64,000 nucleotides of DNA from contig JAGWLB010000002.1 in the NCBI GenBank assembly GCA_028865035.1, forward strand, positions 49,531 to 113,530. Direction: 5' to 3'. The notes below the pieces were generated by a model. That model was not told where the DNA came from. It made no database searches and saw nothing but the letters and a program-made list of their open reading frames with translations. Shown here piece by piece: positions 6,194 through 53,556 of this stretch. The first letter of the stretch is position 1; every line of letters begins with the position of its first letter. Source of the DNA: Patescibacteria group bacterium (GTDB taxonomy: Bacteria; Patescibacteriota; Minisyncoccia; Phycocordibacterales; UBA9973). Both the position numbers and the translations under genes were made by a program.

Positions 6194-7078
6194 TTATATT
6201 TTATGTATTTCTCCCATCTCTTCTTTTATTAATTCTTTTATCTCCATTATCGAAAGCAAAGCATTTGCTGTAGATGTATCAGTATCTAGGAGTCGAATAA
6301 GTTCATCTCTTTCTATTGGTTCACGAAGTAGCTCAATGATTCTTTTTTCTTCTTTTGAACAATCAGCATACTTTTCTTTTTCATCTAAGAATGGTTTCTC
6401 GATAGTAAAACCAAGTGCTTCAAGAACTTCTTCGCTTGTAGTCACTGGAGTGGCTCCTTGGCGGATGAGAGTATTAGTGCCTCTTGAATTTGAAGAAAAA
6501 GCTGAACCAGGTACAGCTAAGACATCGCGATTATAATCGAGGGCCATACGAGCTGTGATAAGTGTTCCAGATTTTTCCTCAGCTTCTATAATAAGAACTG
6601 CTTTTGCTATTCCTGCCATTAAGCGATTTCTTTGGGGGAATGAATATAATGTAGCTTTCCATTTTGGGTCAAGTTCAGAAATTAAACATCCACCTTTCTC
6701 TACTATATCTTTTGCTAGATTAATATTACTTTGTGGATGCAATACACTATAGTCTAAACCAGATCCTGGGAAAGATATAGTTAAGAGAGATGCCTTAAGG
6801 GCAGCTCTGTGAGCAATACTATCAATACCAAGAGCAAGCCCTGAAACAATCACAATAGGATAACCTTTTAAACCTTCTATTAATTTCTCGCATATATCAC
6901 GACCATATGATGTATATTTTCGAGACCCAACTACTGCTAGGTAAACGTATTGGCTTGGAGGCATTTTACCACGCATATATAGAGTTCTTGGAGGTTGAGG
7001 TATTTCAAGTAATGGTTTAGGAAATTCTTCAGGTTTTAATTTTATAATATCTGACATATTAGTGAGCTGTATTATCAA
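6194..7078 (-). CDS. dprA: DNA processing protein DprA (Rossmann-like DNA-binding domain)
   Basis: Motifs VVGSRKYTSYGRD and SGLALGIDSIAHRAAL; a C-terminal winged-helix-like tail. Confidence 0.8.
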   Translation of the reverse strand: MIIQLTNMSDIIKLKPEEFPKPLLEIPQPPRTLYMRGKMPPSQYVYLAVVGSRKYTSYGRDICEKLIEGLKGYPIVIVSGLALGIDSIAHRAALKASLLTISFPGSGLDYSVLHPQSNINLAKDIVEKGGCLISELDPKWKATLYSFPQRNRLMAGIAKAVLIIEAEEKSGTLITARMALDYNRDVLAVPGSAFSSNSRGTNTLIRQGATPVTTSEEVLEALGFTIEKPFLDEKEKYADCSKEEKRIIELLREPIERDELIRLLDTDTSTANALLSIMEIKELIKEEMGEIHKI

Positions 7079-7117: not shown

Positions 7118-8428
7118 ATGCTAGACATTAAATTCATCAGAGAGAATAAAGATATAGTAAAAGCTGGCATTAAAAAAAAGAATGCCAATGTGGATATAGA
7201 TGAACTTCTCAAGCTAGACGAGAAGAGACTTTCAATTATGGCAAGTTCTGAGATTCTTCGCAGTGAACAAAACAGAATGAACAACTCAATTGCTGCAGAG
7301 AAAGATTTTAATACACGACAGCAAATGATAAATGAAATGAAGATTGTTAAGGATGAATTTAAAGAAAAAGAAGAAGAACTTCAAAAAATTATAGCTCAAT
7401 GGCAAGCCTTAATGTTAAAGATACCAAATATTCCATCTGTAGATACACCAGAAGGTCCAGATGAAACAGGTAATCAAGTTATAAGACAATGGGGAGAGAA
7501 GCCTGAATTTTCTTTTACTCCCAAAGAACATTTTGAACTTGGTAAAAATTTAGGAGTAATAGACACAGAAACTGCTGCAGAAGTTGCTTCATCACGCTTT
7601 TCTTACTTAAAAGGTGATTTGGTCCTTTTACAGTTTGCTCTTATACAGATGTGTTTAGAAATTTTAACAAATCAAGAAACTTTATCTAAGATAGCTCAAG
7701 AAGCTGGTCTTTCTGTAAATACAAAAGAATTCATTCCTGTTATACCTCCAGTATTCATTAGACCACTAGTACAAATAAAAATGGCACGTTATCTTACTCC
7801 AGATGATCATTATATTTTCCCTAATGATGATCTTATGCTTATAGGTAGTGCTGAACATACTTTAGGTTCAATGCATATGAATAAGATTTTTGAAGAGAAT
7901 GAATTGCCTATTAGATATGCAGGTTACTCGACTGCGTTTAGACGTGAAGCAGGTACTGCTGGTAAAGATACTAACGGAATCCTAAGACAACACCAATTTG
8001 ATAAATTAGAAATGGAGGTTTTTTCTTTACCCGAGAATTCAACCCAGGAACAGAATTTTCTAGTAGCAATACAAGAGTACATATTAAAGACTCTAAATTT
8101 ACCCTACCAAGTAGTTTCCGTTTGTACAGGTGATATGGGTTTCCCAGATACTAGACAAATAGATATAGAGACTTGGATGCCAGGACAGAACAAATATAGA
8201 GAGACTCATAGCTCAGATAGCACCGGCGGTTTTCAAGCTCGTCGTCTGAATACGAGAGTACGCAGGAAAGATGGAAGAATAGAGCCTGTGCATATGAATG
8301 ATGCTACTGTTGTTGCTGTTGGTCGCACTTTGATTGCTATTATGGAAAACTATCAACAAGAAGATGGAAGTATAAAAATCCCAGAAGTTCTAAGGAAGTA
8401 TTTTAATAAAGATATTATTTCTTCATAA
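7118..8428 (+). CDS. serS: seryl-tRNA synthetase
   Basis: N-terminal coiled-coil arm; class II aaRS motifs (FRREAGTAGKDTNGILRQHQFDKLEM...); 436 aa. Confidence 0.9.
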   Translation: MLDIKFIRENKDIVKAGIKKKNANVDIDELLKLDEKRLSIMASSEILRSEQNRMNNSIAAEKDFNTRQQMINEMKIVKDEFKEKEEELQKIIAQWQALMLKIPNIPSVDTPEGPDETGNQVIRQWGEKPEFSFTPKEHFELGKNLGVIDTETAAEVASSRFSYLKGDLVLLQFALIQMCLEILTNQETLSKIAQEAGLSVNTKEFIPVIPPVFIRPLVQIKMARYLTPDDHYIFPNDDLMLIGSAEHTLGSMHMNKIFEENELPIRYAGYSTAFRREAGTAGKDTNGILRQHQFDKLEMEVFSLPENSTQEQNFLVAIQEYILKTLNLPYQVVSVCTGDMGFPDTRQIDIETWMPGQNKYRETHSSDSTGGFQARRLNTRVRRKDGRIEPVHMNDATVVAVGRTLIAIMENYQQEDGSIKIPEVLRKYFNKDIISS

Positions 8429-20749: not shown

Positions 20750-21796
20750 TTATTCTTCTGTTTGTGGTTTTTCTAAGGTTAAATTTTCTATTTCTATTGC
20801 TTCTCCAGTTATTCTCATTACATCTTTGTCTATTTTTCTAAATTCGTGATTTGATTTATTGAAATGATTCACTGTAGTAGCTATAGAATTACCAAGCTTC
20901 TGGTGAACTTCTTCGTATACCCTTAGGTGATTACCAAGCTCACCAACACGTTTGATAATATCTTTAGCACTTTCTTCTATTTGTAGAGCTTTAAGGCCTT
21001 GTAAGACAGTTTGTAAGTAAGCAAGAAATGAAGTCGGGGAAACAATTATAACTTTATATTTACCGGCAGCACGCTGTATGAGGTTCTCATTATCGTCTGT
21101 AACCGCTCCAATTTTATTTATTAGTAAATCATAATAGATTGCCTCATGAGGTATAAACATAAAAGCGAAATCCATAGTGCCTTCCTCGGGTTGTATGTAT
21201 TTTGAAGTTTCTATAATACGATTCTTTAAATCATTTACAAATATTTTTTCTAAACGATCTTTTTCTTGTTTATCATTTGTTTCCGAAATACGATTATAAT
21301 TCTCAAGTGAGAATTTTGAATCAATAGGAATAACTTTATCTTTTACAAATACTGCAGCATCAACAATAGTGCCATCTGGGAAAGGGTACTGCATCTGGTA
21401 AGATCCTGGAGGCATAACATTCTTTAAAAGTGTCTCTAAATAATATTCTCCAAGTATGCCACGCTGTTTTGGATTCTTTAGGACATCTTGTAGGTTCTGT
21501 AGTTGATCTGCGAAAGATACGACTTGCTTATTTGTCTCGTCGAGCCTTGTTATCTTCTCGGTGATATCAGCAATGATACGAGAAGTTTCACTCGATTGAT
21601 AACGCATTGTCTGATTGATTTCTTTTTGTGATTCGCCAAGTTTATTGTCTATCGTACGAGAAAGCTCATTTATCTGAGCAAGAAGCATTTGCATAGCTCC
21701 ATCATTCTGTTCAATTGGTTTCTTTTTTAAAGCAGAAAATAATCCAATAATAAGAGCTACTAGTATTAAAAGGAATATAATTATAACTGCGTTCAT
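20750..21796 (-). CDS. rmuC: DNA recombination protein RmuC
   Basis: N-terminal TM helix, a coiled coil, and a C-terminal RmuC domain (VIPIDSKFSLENY). Confidence 0.7.
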   Translation of the reverse strand: MNAVIIIFLLILVALIIGLFSALKKKPIEQNDGAMQMLLAQINELSRTIDNKLGESQKEINQTMRYQSSETSRIIADITEKITRLDETNKQVVSFADQLQNLQDVLKNPKQRGILGEYYLETLLKNVMPPGSYQMQYPFPDGTIVDAAVFVKDKVIPIDSKFSLENYNRISETNDKQEKDRLEKIFVNDLKNRIIETSKYIQPEEGTMDFAFMFIPHEAIYYDLLINKIGAVTDDNENLIQRAAGKYKVIIVSPTSFLAYLQTVLQGLKALQIEESAKDIIKRVGELGNHLRVYEEVHQKLGNSIATTVNHFNKSNHEFRKIDKDVMRITGEAIEIENLTLEKPQTEE

Positions 21797-27105: not shown

Positions 27106-28643
<1,538 letters not shown>

Positions 28644-28922: not shown

Positions 28923-30560
28923 ATGATTACACCAGAATTGGTACAATTCGTAAGAAGCGAGCTTGCACGCGGTGCAACTAAAGAATTAATTACCGCACAA
29001 TTAAAAACACAAGCATGGACAGACGTAGACATAAATGAAGTTTTTAAATCTGTCTCATCATCTACATCAAGTGCATCTTCCCCATATCCTAAAAAATCAA
29101 AGGTATTTTTAGGATTCGTACTTATTGTATTATTCTTCATAATTATTATTCTGGGAGGCTTTATTGCCTATGCTTCTGGTTATGTTATTCCTTTAACAAA
29201 TGTTTTTTCTGAATCTGTACAATCGTCAAAAAGTAGCACTGGTACAACTTTTGATATCGCTGTTACTGTCGATAGCTCAGGAATGAAATCATTAAAAAAC
29301 AGTGAAGGTTTTATGTCCGGAACATCAAATATTTCAACCCTCGATGCGAAAGGCTCTTACGATATTCTTGATCCTAAAAATATTAAAGGGAATCTTTCTT
29401 TACTATTAGAATCAGGAACATTCGAAACAGGTATAGATGCTAGATCTGTAGATGGTTCCCTGTATTTAGATTTAACCAAAGCTCCTGATTTTGGATTTAT
29501 ATCTTTAAAACCATTTGAGAATAAATGGGTTGTCGTACCATACAAATCCAATCCAAGCGAACTCACAAATAATCCGCTGCTTTCAGCTTCTGGTATATCT
29601 AATATAGATAATAGTCCTTTAAGTAAATTAACAGATGAACAAAAACAGCATATTGCCGATATTACCCAAAAAGCAAACTTTATAAAAATTACTAGCAGAC
29701 ACTTACCAGTAATAATTGATGGTAATCTTTCTTATCATTTTAATTTTGATATAGATTTTAATGGCATTGCTTCGTATATTACAGACATAACAAATTATCT
29801 GAAAAGTATTGATACCAATAATACAAACATTTCATCAATTGATACTACTGAATATAGTAAATGGGCTAATGCAATAAAGAATTTTAAAGGAGAAGCTTGG
29901 ATAGGGGTATTTAACCATTTGCCATATAAAATTATTTCTAATTTTGATATTTTAAACCCAGATAAACCTGAGGATGGTACTATCAATATTAATACATCTA
30001 TTGCTTATAGTAATTGGAATAAACCTGTCGTCGTTGAAGTACCACAAGGTGCCATAACCTTTGATCAATTAATGTCTTCGGTTAACTCAAATCCTTATAA
30101 TATATCTTCATCTACAAATGATAATTCAAATTCATTCATTGATGCGCAAAATAAAAGCAGAGATGCCTCTATGGAATCTATTATTAGCAATATGAGAGCG
30201 CAAGCAGAATTATTTTATAATGCTAATAATACTTACAAAGGATTTTGTACTTCACGTTCTCAGAATGGTGCTTATACCCTTGCCGTAACATTACCACAAA
30301 ATACTGTATATAAATGCAATGATTCCTCAAACGAATGGGCATCTTGGGCAAAGTTATCTACGAATAGTTACTGGTGTGCTGATTCTACTGGATTTTCAGG
30401 TAGTGGTAACATTGAAAAATCAAGTGATACTAAATGTCCTTTCCTCTATCCTACGGGTCTTATATCAGCAACACCAGCAGAGTTAAAAAATATTGAGTCA
30501 GCTAATTCTATCCCTGATAGTAGTCTCCCTTGTATCCCTGGCCCAGGTATATCTTGCTAG
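28923..30560 (+). CDS. hypothetical membrane-anchored surface protein (545 aa; N-terminal helical domain, one TM helix, large Ser/Asn-rich ectodomain with a Cys-rich C-terminus)
   Basis: Hydrophobic segment FLGFVLIVLFFIIIILGGFIAYA. Confidence 0.5.
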   Translation: MITPELVQFVRSELARGATKELITAQLKTQAWTDVDINEVFKSVSSSTSSASSPYPKKSKVFLGFVLIVLFFIIIILGGFIAYASGYVIPLTNVFSESVQSSKSSTGTTFDIAVTVDSSGMKSLKNSEGFMSGTSNISTLDAKGSYDILDPKNIKGNLSLLLESGTFETGIDARSVDGSLYLDLTKAPDFGFISLKPFENKWVVVPYKSNPSELTNNPLLSASGISNIDNSPLSKLTDEQKQHIADITQKANFIKITSRHLPVIIDGNLSYHFNFDIDFNGIASYITDITNYLKSIDTNNTNISSIDTTEYSKWANAIKNFKGEAWIGVFNHLPYKIISNFDILNPDKPEDGTININTSIAYSNWNKPVVVEVPQGAITFDQLMSSVNSNPYNISSSTNDNSNSFIDAQNKSRDASMESIISNMRAQAELFYNANNTYKGFCTSRSQNGAYTLAVTLPQNTVYKCNDSSNEWASWAKLSTNSYWCADSTGFSGSGNIEKSSDTKCPFLYPTGLISATPAELKNIESANSIPDSSLPCIPGPGISC

Positions 30561-43053: not shown

Positions 43054-43179
43054 TTATTTAGATTTCTTCTTTGATGCTTTTTTCTCTAACATTAATTTTT
43101 TAACCTCTAATCTTTTCTTAGTCTTATGAGAGTGACGTGATCTCTTTTTAGGACCAAGAGTTGTATCTCTTTTTGCCAT
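43054..43179 (-). CDS. 41-aa highly basic protein (possible small ribosomal protein, bL32-like PKKRSRHSH segment), not in the ORF track
   Basis: MAKRDTTLGPKKRSRHSHKTKKRLEVKKLMLEKKASKKKSK. Confidence 0.3.
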   Translation of the reverse strand: MAKRDTTLGPKKRSRHSHKTKKRLEVKKLMLEKKASKKKSK

Positions 43180-43335: not shown

Positions 43336-43408
43336 TCCGGAGTAGCTCAGCGGTAGAGCAAGCGACTGTTAATCGCTTGGTCGCAGGTTCGATCCCTGCC
43401 TCCGGAGC
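43336..43408 (+). tRNA. tRNA-Asn (anticodon GTT)
   Basis: TCCGGAG acceptor, anticodon loop CTGTTAA, T-loop GGTTCGATCC; terminator hairpin at 43437-43468. Confidence 0.85.
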
Positions 43409-43470
43409 ATTTAAAAATTTTATAAGAATGTAAAGAAAAAATCCTGCCTTTTAAAAGACAGGATTTAAGA

Positions 43471-43700
43471 TTGTGTGAACCCATAAGTAGACGTTTAACC
43501 GCGTCTGCTGGCACGTCAATTAGACACTTACTTTCTCTTAGCAACATTGGCATACGTTCCGTGTTAACTACTGGCTCACTTATAAAAAGTGTTATTCTTT
43601 GGGCGGTGTGTACAAGGACTGTTTTTACGCCCTATTAAAGCTCGCTTTCGCTCAGTCCCCCAAAGCACTTTATCTAAGGTACAATCTCAAGACTATATTA
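43471..43700 (-). other. mosaic of near-exact universal 16S rRNA motifs in non-rRNA order (1400-region CCTTGTACACACCGCCC; 530-loop GTGCCAGCAGACGCGGTTAAACG; GGGCGTAAA; GGACTGAG)
   Basis: Exact 17-mer match to the decoding-site consensus and 20/23 match to the 530 loop, both on the minus strand, ~90 nt apart. These differ from this genome's own 16S at those positions. Confidence 0.6.
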
Positions 43701-43709
43701 GCATATTAT

Positions 43710-43741
43710 ACTCTTCCGAACATCCTCCCAGGTTTGGAGCC
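43710..43741 (+). repeat. cassette-associated inverted repeat, copy 1 (ACTCTTCCGAACATCCTCCCAGGTTTGGAGCC)
   Basis: Half-sites CCGAAC/GTTYGG separated by 10 bp, immediately upstream of the promoter of 43809. Confidence 0.75.
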
Positions 43742-43808
43742 ATACTTGACAAATTACTTTATATATTATATTTTAGAGTTAAATTGTTAAACTAAAAATT
43801 GAATAATT

Positions 43809-44312
43809 ATGAAAAAAGTTTTTCTTGTTCTTTTAATAACATACTCAATAGTATGTACAGGTTATATTATTTATCTAAAGTCACCTCTCAATGACCATGG
43901 GCATAGACTCTACGGAGTTAAGAATCCAAAAACTATGTTAGTTTTAGATTCAATATTCCGTGATGTAGCTAACCTTCATAGGGATTTGGTCTTTAAGGTT
44001 GGACCGAGTACTCAGGCAATTTACGACAACGGCAGAGTTGGCTTAAATTATATAAGCGACTCAACAGTGGATCTTCCATTATCTGGGCCCAGCTTCGTTG
44101 TCAGTAATCCAGAAGAATCAGCACAAAAAGCCGCTAGGATTCTAACCCGAAATGGATTTAATGCCAGAATTATTGTTAATTTTGACTCAACTTTATCCAA
44201 TAAATTAGTTTTACTTCAAAGTAACTCTATTAATTGGACACTTGTTTTTAGAAGAGATATTCTAAATATGGGCAAGAAACCAAAAGACATAGGTTTCGGA
44301 TGGGCAAAATGA
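43809..44312 (+). CDS. hypothetical membrane-anchored protein (167 aa)
   Basis: N-terminal TM helix; terminator hairpin at 44341-44370. Confidence 0.45.
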   Translation: MKKVFLVLLITYSIVCTGYIIYLKSPLNDHGHRLYGVKNPKTMLVLDSIFRDVANLHRDLVFKVGPSTQAIYDNGRVGLNYISDSTVDLPLSGPSFVVSNPEESAQKAARILTRNGFNARIIVNFDSTLSNKLVLLQSNSINWTLVFRRDILNMGKKPKDIGFGWAK

Positions 44313-44389
44313 TTTTCAAAAAAAGATGATTTTTTTATTGAAGGAATCGTGTAACAACGATTCCTTTTTTATTTATCCATATCAACCAA

Positions 44390-44421
44390 ACTCTTCCGAA
44401 CATCCTCCCAGGTTCGGAGCC
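44390..44421 (+). repeat. cassette-associated inverted repeat, copy 2 (ACTCTTCCGAACATCCTCCCAGGTTCGGAGCC)
   Basis: 31/32 identical to copy 1; perfect CCGAAC-N10-GTTCGG. Confidence 0.8.
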
Positions 44422-44477
44422 TAAATTTTAATTTGATTTGTAAGAGGAAAATTGTATAATTAAAGAAAACTTTAGTA

Positions 44478-45125
44478 ATGGAATTAAATGTATCAAAACA
44501 GTATTATGAATCACTTGATTATACTGCCATTTCTTTAATAGAAACCGTTACCCGTTTTAATACTAATTGTGGAAGTATTAACAATATTATATCGACAGAA
44601 GATAACTTTCCTTTGAAAAGGAATCCGGGAGCTAATATTGAAGATTGGAATGGTTTTTTTGTTTCTCGTAATTTTAGATTTTTATTGAAGCTAAATTGTT
44701 TTGGAAAGATAATGGAAATTCCTTACCACAAAAATATTAGCACCCTAATTAGTTGTGCTAGATATGATGAAAAGTTTAATAATGTGGTAATAAATAATGA
44801 TTATTGTCTTAGAAAAGCCAATTTTCTGAAGTCAGTAACAAACCATCAGCTTTTTGGATATCTGTTTTCTAAATCAAATGAGCTATCAATAATGACACTG
44901 GACGATATCAGTTTCCTGTGGATGATTCTAAGTACACTCCTATTTCATGAAAATTTGCTAAATCATGGAGAATGGTGCCACAACGTATTTATGGGTTGGA
45001 AAAGAAATAGTCCTTTAATAGTTCAGAGAATTGGAAAATTATGGCATCTTTCAAATGATGAATTTTATCCTGAACATTCGTATCATGTAAAAGATGAAAC
45101 ATTATTTTTCCCGGTTATCAAGTGA
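44478..45125 (+). CDS. hypothetical protein (215 aa)
   Basis: Promoter TTGATT-N16-TATAAT upstream; terminator at 45131-45172. Confidence 0.45.
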   Translation: MELNVSKQYYESLDYTAISLIETVTRFNTNCGSINNIISTEDNFPLKRNPGANIEDWNGFFVSRNFRFLLKLNCFGKIMEIPYHKNISTLISCARYDEKFNNVVINNDYCLRKANFLKSVTNHQLFGYLFSKSNELSIMTLDDISFLWMILSTLLFHENLLNHGEWCHNVFMGWKRNSPLIVQRIGKLWHLSNDEFYPEHSYHVKDETLFFPVIK

Positions 45126-45277
45126 TTATAAAGACACCATTTTATTTAACGGTGTCTTTTTAATAATATCTAGAACATTTTCCAATCTTTTCTTAATTTT
45201 ATTCCAATTAGAATTCTGAACTTGTCCACTAAAGCGAGCCAGATAGATTCTCGTTAAAGTTTTGATATAATAAACTT

Positions 45278-45832
45278 ATGAGAAAAATAATTGTACAAGA
45301 AATGATTAGTGTTGATGGATTTTTTGCTGGAGAAAACGGTGAAATAGATTGGCATAATGTGGATGCCGAATTTAATAAATATGCTATTGAATTTCTTAAT
45401 ACCATAGATTCTTTGTTGTTTGGCCGCATTACTTATGAACTCATGGCAAGTTATTGGCCTACAGAAGCTGCTTTAAATGATGACCAAATCGTTGCTTCTA
45501 AAATGAATAATCTTTCGAAAATTGTTTTTTCTAAAACCAGGAATATATTAGAATGGAATAACTCAAAAGTGTTTTCTGAAATTAATGCAGAAGAAATAAA
45601 AAAATTAAAACAAACTGAAGGTAAGGATATTGCCATATTTGGCAGTGGTACTATTGTATCTGAACTTACCAAACTAAGATTAATTGATGAGTATCGGCTT
45701 ATTGTAAATCCTATAGTTCTTGGTAAGGGTAAGTCATTATTTTCATATATAGAAAAAAGATACAAGTTACAGCTCGTAAAAGTAGAAAAGTTTAAATCAG
45801 GAAATGTTTCCCTTCACTACAGTCTTTTATAG
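45278..45832 (+). CDS. dihydrofolate reductase-like (RibD C-terminal domain family)
   Basis: MRKIIVQEMISVDGFFAGENGEIDWH start and a DHFR-like fold pattern. Confidence 0.6.
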   Translation: MRKIIVQEMISVDGFFAGENGEIDWHNVDAEFNKYAIEFLNTIDSLLFGRITYELMASYWPTEAALNDDQIVASKMNNLSKIVFSKTRNILEWNNSKVFSEINAEEIKKLKQTEGKDIAIFGSGTIVSELTKLRLIDEYRLIVNPIVLGKGKSLFSYIEKRYKLQLVKVEKFKSGNVSLHYSLL

Positions 45833-45862
45833 AATCAATAAGGGTTAAGAACATTTAATAAT

Positions 45863-45893
45863 ACTCTTCCGAACATAATCCAAGGTTTGGATC
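45863..45893 (+). repeat. cassette-associated inverted repeat, copy 3 (ACTCTTCCGAACATAATCCAAGGTTTGGATC)
   Basis: Conserved half-sites and 10-bp spacer length; the spacer sequence diverges. Confidence 0.7.
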
Positions 45894-45929
45894 TTGTTAA
45901 TTTTGTAGTAGAGATGTTATATTTCTATC

Positions 45930-46403
45930 ATGGAAGAAAGAGATACAGAAGGAGCTTTTAGATGGATTGTAAATATAATTAAAAAACATAATATACCTTT
46001 TCAGATAAAAGGTGGTTTTGCTTCACGTCTATATGGAGTAAAAAGGGAACTGGCTGATATTGATATATCTATCCCAGAGAATAGATTTGATGAATTAATT
46101 CCTGAAATAAAAGAGTTTATTGTATATGGACCAGAACAATATTTAGATGATGAATGGGATATAAAACTCATAACTCTAACTTACAAAAATCAGGATATAG
46201 ATATAGCAGGAGCATATAAAAAGAAAAACTTTGATAAGATGAACCAGAAATGGGTAAATATACCGACTAACTTTGATACTAGTGTGTATATGGATGTATA
46301 TGGTTTAAATGTACCAGTGATTTCTAAGACAGACCTAATAAATTACAAGAAACTCATTCAAAGAGATGTAGATATATTTGATATTAATGCTTTAAGTAAG
46401 TAA
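45930..46403 (+). CDS. small nucleotidyltransferase-fold protein resembling lincosamide (Lnu) or aminoglycoside nucleotidyltransferases
   Basis: IKGGFASRLYGVKRELADIDISIP parallels Lnu WLDGGWGVDVLTG...HRDIDIDFD; 157 aa. Confidence 0.45.
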   Translation: MEERDTEGAFRWIVNIIKKHNIPFQIKGGFASRLYGVKRELADIDISIPENRFDELIPEIKEFIVYGPEQYLDDEWDIKLITLTYKNQDIDIAGAYKKKNFDKMNQKWVNIPTNFDTSVYMDVYGLNVPVISKTDLINYKKLIQRDVDIFDINALSK

Positions 46404-46408
46404 CTTAA

Positions 46409-46438
46409 TATTCTTCAGAACATAGTCTCAGAATTGTA
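46409..46438 (+). repeat. degenerate fourth copy of the cassette repeat
   Basis: TATTCTTCAGAACATAGTCTCAGAATTG, about 60% identical to the others. Confidence 0.35.
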
Positions 46439-46516
46439 GTTTAGTGAATTTGTAAACGTTATTAATTTTAAATAAGTACTTACATATATGTAAACTTTTA
46501 TGATATAGTCATTGTT

Positions 46517-47119
46517 ATGATAAAAGTATTAATTTTTGATGCTGACGGTGTTCTCATAAATGGTGAGATGTTCAGTAAAATACTTGCTAAAGAATACGGA
46601 ATCTCAACCGAAATAACAGAACCATTTTTTGACGGACCTTTTAGTGAGTGCTTAGTTGGTAATATTGATTTGAAAGAAGCTATTTCTCCATATTTAGAAG
46701 GTTGGGGATGGAAAACAGGTGTGGATAGTTTCCTAGATTATTGGTTTTCTGCAGAGCACTCTATTGATCAAGATTTGATTGCATATATTCAAGAATGTAG
46801 AAAGAGGGGAATCAAGTGCTATGTTGCAACCAATCAAGAAAAGCATCGAGCTGAGTATATGCTTGATAAATTAGGATTTGTAAATAACTTTGATAAGCTT
46901 TATGCTTCTGCGCATTTAGGGCATAAAAAACCAAGTTTGGATTTCTATGAAAAATTAGTAAACGATCTCGACGGCATAAATAAAGAAGAAATCCTATTTT
47001 GGGATGATTCACCTAAAAATATAACGGCCGCACGACAATTTGGAATTAATGCAGAATTATATACTACTTTTGAAGATTTTAATAAGAGAATGAAGATTTA
47101 TCCTGATTTTGATAAGTAA
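46517..47119 (+). CDS. HAD superfamily hydrolase (subfamily IA)
   Basis: IFDADGVL motif I; bidirectional terminator at 47152-47175. Confidence 0.75.
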   Translation: MIKVLIFDADGVLINGEMFSKILAKEYGISTEITEPFFDGPFSECLVGNIDLKEAISPYLEGWGWKTGVDSFLDYWFSAEHSIDQDLIAYIQECRKRGIKCYVATNQEKHRAEYMLDKLGFVNNFDKLYASAHLGHKKPSLDFYEKLVNDLDGINKEEILFWDDSPKNITAARQFGINAELYTTFEDFNKRMKIYPDFDK

Positions 47120-47236
47120 TACTAATTCGAATATCCTATCTATTCTTCTAAGCGAGCAAATAAAAAACCCTGTTATAGGGTTTTACGGCAATTTAAAATC
47201 TTAAGTAATATGTATATATTTATAATTATGACTATA

Positions 47237-53513: not shown

Positions 53514-53547
53514 GCAAAACACTCCGAATGTTTCGGAGTGTTTTTTA
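53514..53547. terminator. bidirectional intrinsic terminator
   Basis: AAAACACTCCGAA...TTCGGAGTGTTTTTT. Confidence 0.6.
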
Positions 53548-53556
53548 ATTATTATT

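Follow-up and report, generated by a model that had tools for sequence, protein, structure and literature searches.

Introduction

Among described systems, the closest to the locus reported here are the tandem islands that start at the 3′ end of tRNA and tmRNA genes, and the integron. In Dehalococcoides, the tandem islands at ssrA have 20-bp repeats of its 3′ end as their boundaries, next to a motif without alignment to ssrA (PMC3146451), accretion of cis-mobilizable elements without an integrase has been described (PMC5704250), and the island hotspots of Prochlorococcus tycheposons carry scattered partial tRNAs (bioRxiv 10.1101/2020.12.28.424599). Here we analyse a 64,000-nt stretch of the 115,856-bp contig JAGWLB010000002.1, part of the metagenome-assembled genome of a Patescibacteria group bacterium (hereafter the window, in whose coordinates all window positions are given), in which five co-directional genes (g1–g5) follow a tRNA-Asn gene and are separated by copies of a short, partly palindromic sequence that we call the junction element, E. 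An original prediction had seen here a cassette-like array, perhaps inserted at tRNA-Asn, with E as either a dimeric operator or an attC-like recombination site.

Bacteria of the candidate phyla radiation (CPR/Patescibacteria) have minimal genomes and are thought to be host-attached; little is understood of how accessory genes are acquired and exchanged in this group, and our literature search found no paper describing an integron there. The reading that we favour, at roughly even chances, is that E is the att-like junction site of a tRNA-Asn-anchored, integron-like array whose modules carry their own promoters. If true, an array of one-gene modules with a conserved junction, anchored at a tRNA, would provide a concrete mechanism for strain-level gene turnover and would link gene capture to the rules of gene expression without Shine-Dalgarno (SD) sequences and from leaderless mRNAs.

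Results

Junction elements bound all five genes of the array

A 32-nt element, ACTCTTCCGAACATCCTCCCAGGTTYGGAGCC, of the form TCCGAAC-ATCCTCCCAN-GTTCGGA-GCA, occurs at 43710 and 44390 (31/32 positions identical between the two) and, at 84% identity, at 45863. These positions, given in the original prediction, were confirmed, and no further copy was found elsewhere in the 64 kb: the half-site pattern matched six times (three sites on both strands) against 0.13 expected, and the three strong copies are packed into 2.2 kb, with none in the other 61 kb. E is built from two 7-bp arms in inverted orientation, TCCGAAC and GTTCGGA, that flank a conserved but asymmetric centre of 10 bp, and it ends in GCA, as does tRNA-Asn. 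Across loci the consensus reads TYCCGAAC-ATCCTCCCAN-GTTCGGAG-CA, the element spanning 24–32 bp with a single inverted-repeat pair of 7–8 bp and a 10-nt centre. The spacer had been thought to vary in sequence; instead, the 10-bp centre (ATCCTCCCA) is kept across 16 copies from six genomes, four of its positions being invariant, and variation is confined to the decayed third copy, E3. Apart from E itself, the window copies retain only a trace of the flank (GGAGCC-TAAATTTTAA).

Three further elements were recognized by alignment to related loci, which we denote by L-numbers (contigs and loci of relatives or metagenomes). The suspected degenerate copy at 46409 corresponds to a 69% copy at 46410–46441 that is non-significant by itself (8.5 bits in the covariance model, E-value 3.8); however, the segment 46406–46468 aligns over 63 nt, at 76% identity, with the element and flank of the metagenome contig L002 (E-value 2.8e-7), and the copy is therefore a decayed element. 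The gene for the DHFR-like protein, g3, which was said to lack an element, is preceded by one of a variant class, whose 60-nt alignment to L026 8413–8473 reached a score attained by 0 of 5000 shuffles. A sixth element, after g5, is a mosaic: its left part matches the L016 element (0/5000 shuffles) and its right part the 3′ end of a long variant found in L026 (p=0.017). With six elements in the window, all five genes are thus bounded by elements of one family (Table 1). A further candidate at 53518–53548 (15.5 bits) was rejected as an ordinary terminator hairpin.

Table 1 Features of the tRNA-Asn array, in window coordinates (bits for E1–E3, covariance model).
Feature	Position	Strand	Evidence or remark
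tRNA-Asn (GUU)	43336..43408	+	ARAGORN; Rfam tRNA 70.9 bits; array head, co-oriented with all junction elements
Bidirectional terminator hairpin after the tRNA	43439..43466	.	
243-nt segment without intact ORF, 39% GC, short 16S-like motifs	43467..43709	.	
E1, junction element; TTGACA −35 box 4 nt further on	43710..43741	+	48.8 bits
g1, 167-aa protein, N-terminal membrane segment, no known family	43809..44312	+	
Terminator of g1	44340..44367	+	
E2, junction element, consensus copy	44390..44421	+	52.7 bits
g2, 215-aa ORFan (KGI58_01560)	44478..45125	+	
Terminator-type hairpin after g2	45125..45164	+	Inverted repeat I23
Variant-class junction element (..TTCTGAACTTGTCCACTAAAGCGAGCC), no hairpin formed	45184..45244	+	L026 alignment
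g3, RibD_C (DHFR-like reductase fold)	45278..45832	+	Pfam 2e-22
E3, junction element, diverged centre (ATAATCCAAG)	45863..45894	+	39.6 bits
g4, minimal nucleotidyltransferase-fold protein (KGI58_01570)	45930..46403	+	
E4, decayed junction element (core 46410–46441) with conserved right flank	46406..46468	+	L002 alignment
g5, HAD-IA family hydrolase	46517..47119	+	HAD 2e-17
E5, mosaic-variant junction element (ATTCGAATATCCTA...CTAAGCGAGCA)	47119..47160	+	
Bidirectional terminator, right end of the array	47164..47184	.	Genes further on lie on the opposite strand

Arrays recur in related genomes, some of them at tRNA-Asn

Loci of relatives were collected as the neighbourhoods of aminopeptidase N orthologs (70–76% identity) and of g4 homologs, and were searched for E by a mismatch scan and by a covariance model built from the 16 copies. 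Like the window, L013 holds six copies, in 5.7 kb of a 22.5-kb locus; L010 holds four, L015 and L002 two each, L016 and L008 one each, and L026 about 12, which fall into three sequence classes. In each locus all copies lie on a single strand, even around genes that are inverted relative to the array, such as L013 5718–6260 (+) and the NMN transporter gene of L010, 754–1356 (−). The units so delimited measure 0.24–2.1 kb and mostly hold one gene each. The exact pattern of E had a sole match among 185,579 species genomes, a chance one in a 49%-GC Anaerolinea contig, which shows that this set does not include the window's genome; a metagenome scan returned eight matches, the true copies being only the low-GC L002 and L008 and the high-GC ones being rejected as chance; and three viral-contig scans, for E, for L026-type E and for the motif M2 described below, yielded one chance match inside a terminase gene and nothing more.

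The flank of the array is conserved in the order DNA polymerase III alpha, RNase HII, aminopeptidase N, (GDH), mucin-like membrane protein. In the window, L013, L015 and L021–L024, tRNA-Asn adjoins the conserved gene of the mucin-like membrane protein. It heads the array in the first three, and the contigs of L021–L024 stop at the tRNA, leaving the downstream side unseen; in L010, L016 and L026 no array-head tRNA was seen within the DNA examined. Past the tRNA, the content is unrelated between genomes, and g1–g5 have no homologs in the loci of the relatives, so that the synteny comparison proposed with the original prediction gave a variable region beside a conserved flank. Even between L010 and L016, with identities of 96% for GDH and 95% for the Rce1-like protein, the modules differ in content and order. 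Beside these two proteins, the aminopeptidase N of L010 and L016 is only 76% identical, which suggests allele replacement or unusually fast evolution.

The hotspot is also visible in how the contigs end. Within the P0008 lineage (L021–L024), defined by one aminopeptidase allele and found in many samples, 15 of 15 contigs end in tRNA-Asn or at most 45 nt after it, a population-level assembly break at the hotspot that the array reading, if true, would explain. Contig L010 begins inside an E. In L013 a group I intron (Rfam RF00028, 69.5 bits), which carries an ORF for an HNH-type endonuclease, interrupts the anticodon loop of tRNA-Asn (7276–7905, minus strand), and the split tRNA was missed by ARAGORN. 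The contig of L027 opens (1–140) within a similar group I intron, followed by a tRNA 3′ exon.

Cassette-like arrays recur in the clade, in L010, L013, L015 and L026, and the locus is not the oddity for a CPR-type genome that it had seemed. The cassette-like reading and the insertion hotspot at tRNA-Asn gained support from these comparisons, with an element at every gene junction.

E lies in a module resembling the tRNA-Asn 3′ end

The 3′ half of E had been noted to resemble tRNA-Asn, and indeed E shares the 8-mer CAGGTTCG and the 7-mer CGGAGCA with the tRNA-Asn of the window (p about 0.02–0.05); the alignment of the L026 long variant with the tRNA covers the part between the anticodon loop and the 3′ end (p 0.02–0.13). 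This resemblance is real and, taken alone, modest; it becomes convincing only through a longer module in the relatives. In L026, L010 and L015, a conserved terminator (AAACCATATTTTATAATGGTTATTTTTT) comes after E, and then a pseudo-T-arm motif, M2 (..RGTTCGAACCTA), 6 nt before the −10 box. In our alignment A3, these ~100-nt E-terminator-M2 modules are collinear with the genuine 3′ end and downstream flank of the L013 tRNA-Asn, and they also match an exact tRNA-3′-end repeat in L015. By this alignment E appears to sit in place of the tRNA 3′ end within a repeated att-like module.

The L015 repeat (7690–7860, minus strand) duplicates 15 nt of the tRNA-Asn 3′ end exactly and in direct orientation (CCCTACCCGAGGAGC), some 150 nt downstream of the tRNA. 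A long hairpin, which contains an inverted copy of the T-arm, is closed by this repeat, and similar tRNA-end repeats occur in L027 and L030. M2, in full TTTTTGYTRCC...RGTTCGAACCTA, is found at L010 317, L013 7211, L015 6885 and 7635, and in several copies in L026. The 8-mer GTTCGAAC is confined to M2 sites in L010, L013 and L015 and has zero occurrences in the window.

The distribution of E also bears on whether it could be a selfish repeat of the REP (repetitive extragenic palindrome) or MITE (miniature inverted-repeat transposable element) type, spreading through AT-rich intergenic DNA without a role in building the array. Such a repeat would be short, palindromic and only intergenic, as E is, and could well leave several sequence classes, decayed copies and a lone copy as in L008. 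A colonising repeat is nonetheless very unlikely, since the copies are clustered, with zero in the remaining 61 kb of the window, lie on one strand per array with no inverted pairs seen, and are tied to the tRNA-Asn flank module; no transposase, REP-associated or other, was seen.

Promoters, probable leaderless mRNAs and a possible operator role for E

Upstream of about 50 genes of the window there are no SD sequences, and TATAAT-like −10 boxes end 6–8 nt before most ATGs (promoter boxes throughout are predictions from sequence only). The 3′ end of the window's 16S rRNA (about 28620–28643) reads ...GGAATAATTCAATT and is without the CCUCC anti-SD. These features suggest that the mRNAs of this genome are leaderless, starting at the ATG; loss of the anti-SD has been published for a Parcubacteria subgroup (PMC9297842). 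Each array gene has its own predicted −10 box, 6–17 nt before its ATG, and g3, whose box lies 6 nt before the ATG, likely gives a leaderless mRNA. That most array genes have a promoter of their own, as originally proposed, holds for each of them by these predictions and is nothing special to the array, being a genome-wide rule.

E might, near these promoters, serve a dimeric transcription factor as operator for co-regulation of the accessory genes, the dimer binding CGAAC and GTTCG. The perfect 7-bp inverted repeat would suit such a role, the copies in the window lie −1 to 11 nt upstream of −35-like hexamers, a layout of E, 3–4 nt and TTGACAAAT recurs in four genomes, and the half-sites of E equal those of the Gram-positive LexA box. 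However, the position of E relative to the promoter is not fixed. The next −10 box follows after 8–13 nt in L002a, L013f and L015a and after up to about 75 nt elsewhere, the distance to the −10/−35 boxes ranging from overlap to about 50 nt, and in L026, L010 and L015 E precedes a terminator hairpin that separates it from the −10 box. Two copies, L013 6273 and L010 767, have convergent genes on either side, a setting that calls for no promoter. The conserved centre is asymmetric, copies follow the orientation of the array and not that of the genes, and variant classes lack the second half-site; moreover, the arm centres are 17 bp apart and are therefore not on the same side of the helix. We consequently regard an operator role as quite improbable, and this half of the original prediction was not supported.

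A possible role of E as a transcribed hairpin

E could instead act as RNA, folding within the 3′ untranslated region (3′ UTR) of the upstream gene into a hairpin whose loop (AUCCUCCCA) is C-rich, with a function in mRNA stability, processing or protein binding. Most copies lie 0–78 nt past the stop codon of a co-oriented gene, and those of L026, L010 and L015, being located before the terminator, would be transcribed. On the strand with the C-rich loop, 93.8% of cells in the stem pair, all 13 of 13 one-sided changes yield G-U pairs, and the strongest copies are more stably folded than shuffled sequences (z about −3). Against this, no compensatory double change was seen among the copies compared, and the one-sided changes could reflect a C-to-T mutational bias. 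The hairpin is weak: the best copies reach −6 kcal/mol, copies with GTTTGG −2.7, those of the L026 class form 5 bp, and the variant classes do not fold. In the window, E2 and the variant element of g3 come after terminators, and the copies at L013 5656 and L010 1407 lie between divergent genes and have no co-oriented gene upstream. Searches of Rfam 15, at gathering score and at E-values up to 10, gave no match on any element. An RNA role is therefore improbable in our judgement, and we treat the conserved property of E as one of the duplex, namely inverted arms, an asymmetric centre and a GGAGCA end, rather than the hairpin. The positions of E fit a simple promoter or 3′-UTR role poorly. We also considered the CCUCCC loop as a mimic of the anti-SD and rejected it; the genome uses no SD sequences with which it could pair, and its 16S rRNA is without the anti-SD.

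Genes of the array

The RibD_C and HAD assignments of g3 and g5 stood (Table 1), and g1 and g2 gave no family match. A query of 5.8 billion proteins with g2 returned only g2 itself, and exact-sequence look-ups with g2 and g4 gave no record. The view of g4 as a resistance-type nucleotidyltransferase could not be upheld, its matches to ANT(2'') and Lnu(E) being weak: it scored 20.0 bits against Pfam Aminoglyc_resit (cut-off 21) and 18.4 against NCBIfam Lnu(E) (cut-off 350), and it has no relative in the PDB by sequence. Its family comprises at least 67 proteins, most of them on short contigs, whose named sources are all Patescibacteria or Paceibacteria, one being given just as "bacterium". In L026, a homolog of g4 (77% identical in amino acids) lies in another array among other neighbours, again with E on both sides.

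Other g4 homologs have different settings. At L025 1–100, on a contig end from the same metagenome-assembled genome as L013, a 77% identical homolog follows immediately after a tRNA whose anticodon loop has CCA, with no E; by eye, this tRNA reads as tRNA-Trp. The contigs of the g4 homologs L027 and L030 carry repeats like tRNA 3′ ends, of a different kind.

Flanking DNA

The segment between the tRNA terminator and E1 (43467–43709) had no Rfam match, no fold signal on either strand and no homolog in the relatives' loci; a structured non-coding RNA, considered there, was rejected for want of a fold signal. Its minus strand holds short stretches that match universal 16S motifs but are scrambled in their order, of which GGGCGGTGTGTACAAG differs from the window's own 16S by one mismatch in 16 and CTGCTGGCACG matches at 11/11. 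The segment may be a chance likeness to 16S or the remains of a decayed first module. On the other side of tRNA-Asn, between it and the gene of the mucin-like membrane protein, a minus-strand ORF (43054–43179) encodes 41 very basic amino acids (MAKRDTTLGPKKRSRHSHKTKKRLEVKKLMLEKKASKKKSK). Directly downstream of the 16S rRNA gene (27106–28643), the usual place of the 23S rRNA gene, lies a 545-aa ORF (28923–30560, +) with no Pfam match.

The window also encodes RmuC (20750–21796, −), ParB (1362–2390, +) and the DNA-uptake recombination mediator DprA (6194–7078, −), whose presence is relevant to a transformation and homologous recombination route of module exchange.

Discussion

Beyond the anatomy, clustering, common orientation, variable content, tRNA anchoring and module homology that we observed, we infer recombination itself and an enzyme to perform it. 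Modules would enter, leave and shuffle by recombination at E junctions or at the tRNA end. One possible route is site-specific, with a recombinase encoded elsewhere and acting in trans; the other is homologous recombination between junction modules after DNA uptake, to which DprA could contribute. Newcomers would displace older modules to positions farther from the tRNA, and junctions would decay with age, as E3, E4, E5 and the g3 variant may have done. A captured gene would need its own promoter, because neither SD nor anti-SD is present and mRNAs appear to start at the ATG.

Several observations weigh against recombination at E. The likeness of E itself to tRNA-Asn is weak (p 0.02–0.3), and E does not track the differing acceptor stem of the L015 tRNA-Asn, which also led us to reject E as a mimic of the tRNA-Asn acceptor-stem minihelix. 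The ~100-nt module, with its terminator and promoter, could have been kept for expression and spread by duplication. Homologs of g4 in L025 and L027–L032 are without E, and in L027–L032 no class-1 E elements were found. A Pfam search of 48 ORFs of the window found no integrase, in agreement with the original prediction, and no transposase, recombinase or HUH (single-strand DNA nuclease) domain either, and precomputed Pfam labels, for genes up to 10 kb away from the relatives' arrays, showed none of these. Neither an excision product nor an empty site was observed, and no module was seen in identical form at two places, the sole shared module being g4 at 77% identity. Finally, the crossover region of tyrosine recombinases is usually 6–8 bp, and the 10-bp centre of E is longer. 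As separate candidates for a recombinase we considered a 446-aa protein of L013, a 454-aa protein of the window and other array proteins, and rejected them, there being no Pfam, NCBIfam, PHROG or PDB match.

A bolder extension of the att-like reading is that the Paceibacteria (CPR) possess a gene-capture platform of their own, with a ~30-bp site derived from the tRNA-Asn 3′ end, a tRNA as dock, cassettes with private promoters and a trans-acting recombinase. In this reading, which we regard as doubtful, the platform would be a functional analogue of the integron, yet unrelated to it, and cassettes would bring their own promoters because translation is leaderless and the anti-SD has been lost. 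If the att-like reading is true, E and the ~100-nt module would provide a searchable signature for accessory genes and for the recombinase.

Compared with known inverted repeats near promoters, E resembles the Gram-positive LexA (SOS) box (CGAAC-N4-GTTCG) and long-spacer operators such as CIRCE in being an inverted repeat close to promoters. The half-sites of the LexA box are identical in E, the spacer of E being 10 nt in all copies and conserved in sequence; unlike the LexA box, E keeps no fixed distance to the promoter, and its neighbour genes are unrelated to DNA repair. Like REPs and BIMEs (bacterial interspersed mosaic elements), E is a short intergenic imperfect palindrome, often just past stop codons. 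Those repeats are dispersed genome-wide, often form inverted pairs and have an associated RAYT transposase, whereas the copies of E are clustered in one array, share a strand and were not seen to have a transposase associated with them.

The likeness to integrons is closer. The array is composed of unrelated, mostly single-ORF units separated by co-oriented imperfect-palindrome sites with AAC...GTT inner ends, its content is highly variable, and occasional ORFs are inverted; integron arrays without a nearby integrase (CALINs, clusters of attC sites lacking integron integrases) are also known. In its anatomy E is nevertheless not the attC-like site that had been suggested, having at 24–32 bp one inverted-repeat pair, whereas attC sites of 57–141 bp have two (R''-L''/L'-R') and extrahelical bases. 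Against the integron core sites RYYYAAC and GTTRRRY, TCCGAAC and GTTCGGA match at 5/7 positions each, with only AAC and GTT exact. There is no IntI or attI, and tRNA-Asn stands at the head of the array. The single-strand fold is not conserved, and the cassettes have predicted promoters of their own in place of a common Pc promoter.

With the tandem islands at tRNA and tmRNA genes, the arrays share a start at the 3′ end of a small-RNA gene (window, L013 and L015), in the same orientation as that gene, and co-oriented boundary repeats that may be related to the RNA-gene 3′ end and are accompanied by an adjacent non-aligning motif. They likewise have strain-variable content beside a conserved flank, units without an integrase, and decaying old junctions. 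Unlike these multi-kb islands, the units here are tiny (0.24–2.1 kb, mostly one gene), none of the arrays was seen to hold an integrase module, each unit has a predicted promoter of its own, and E is a diverged part-palindrome that is conserved across genomes instead of copying the host tRNA end exactly. What sets the arrays apart from these known systems is tiny modules, a junction element that is shared across genomes without being copied from the host tRNA, and private promoters.

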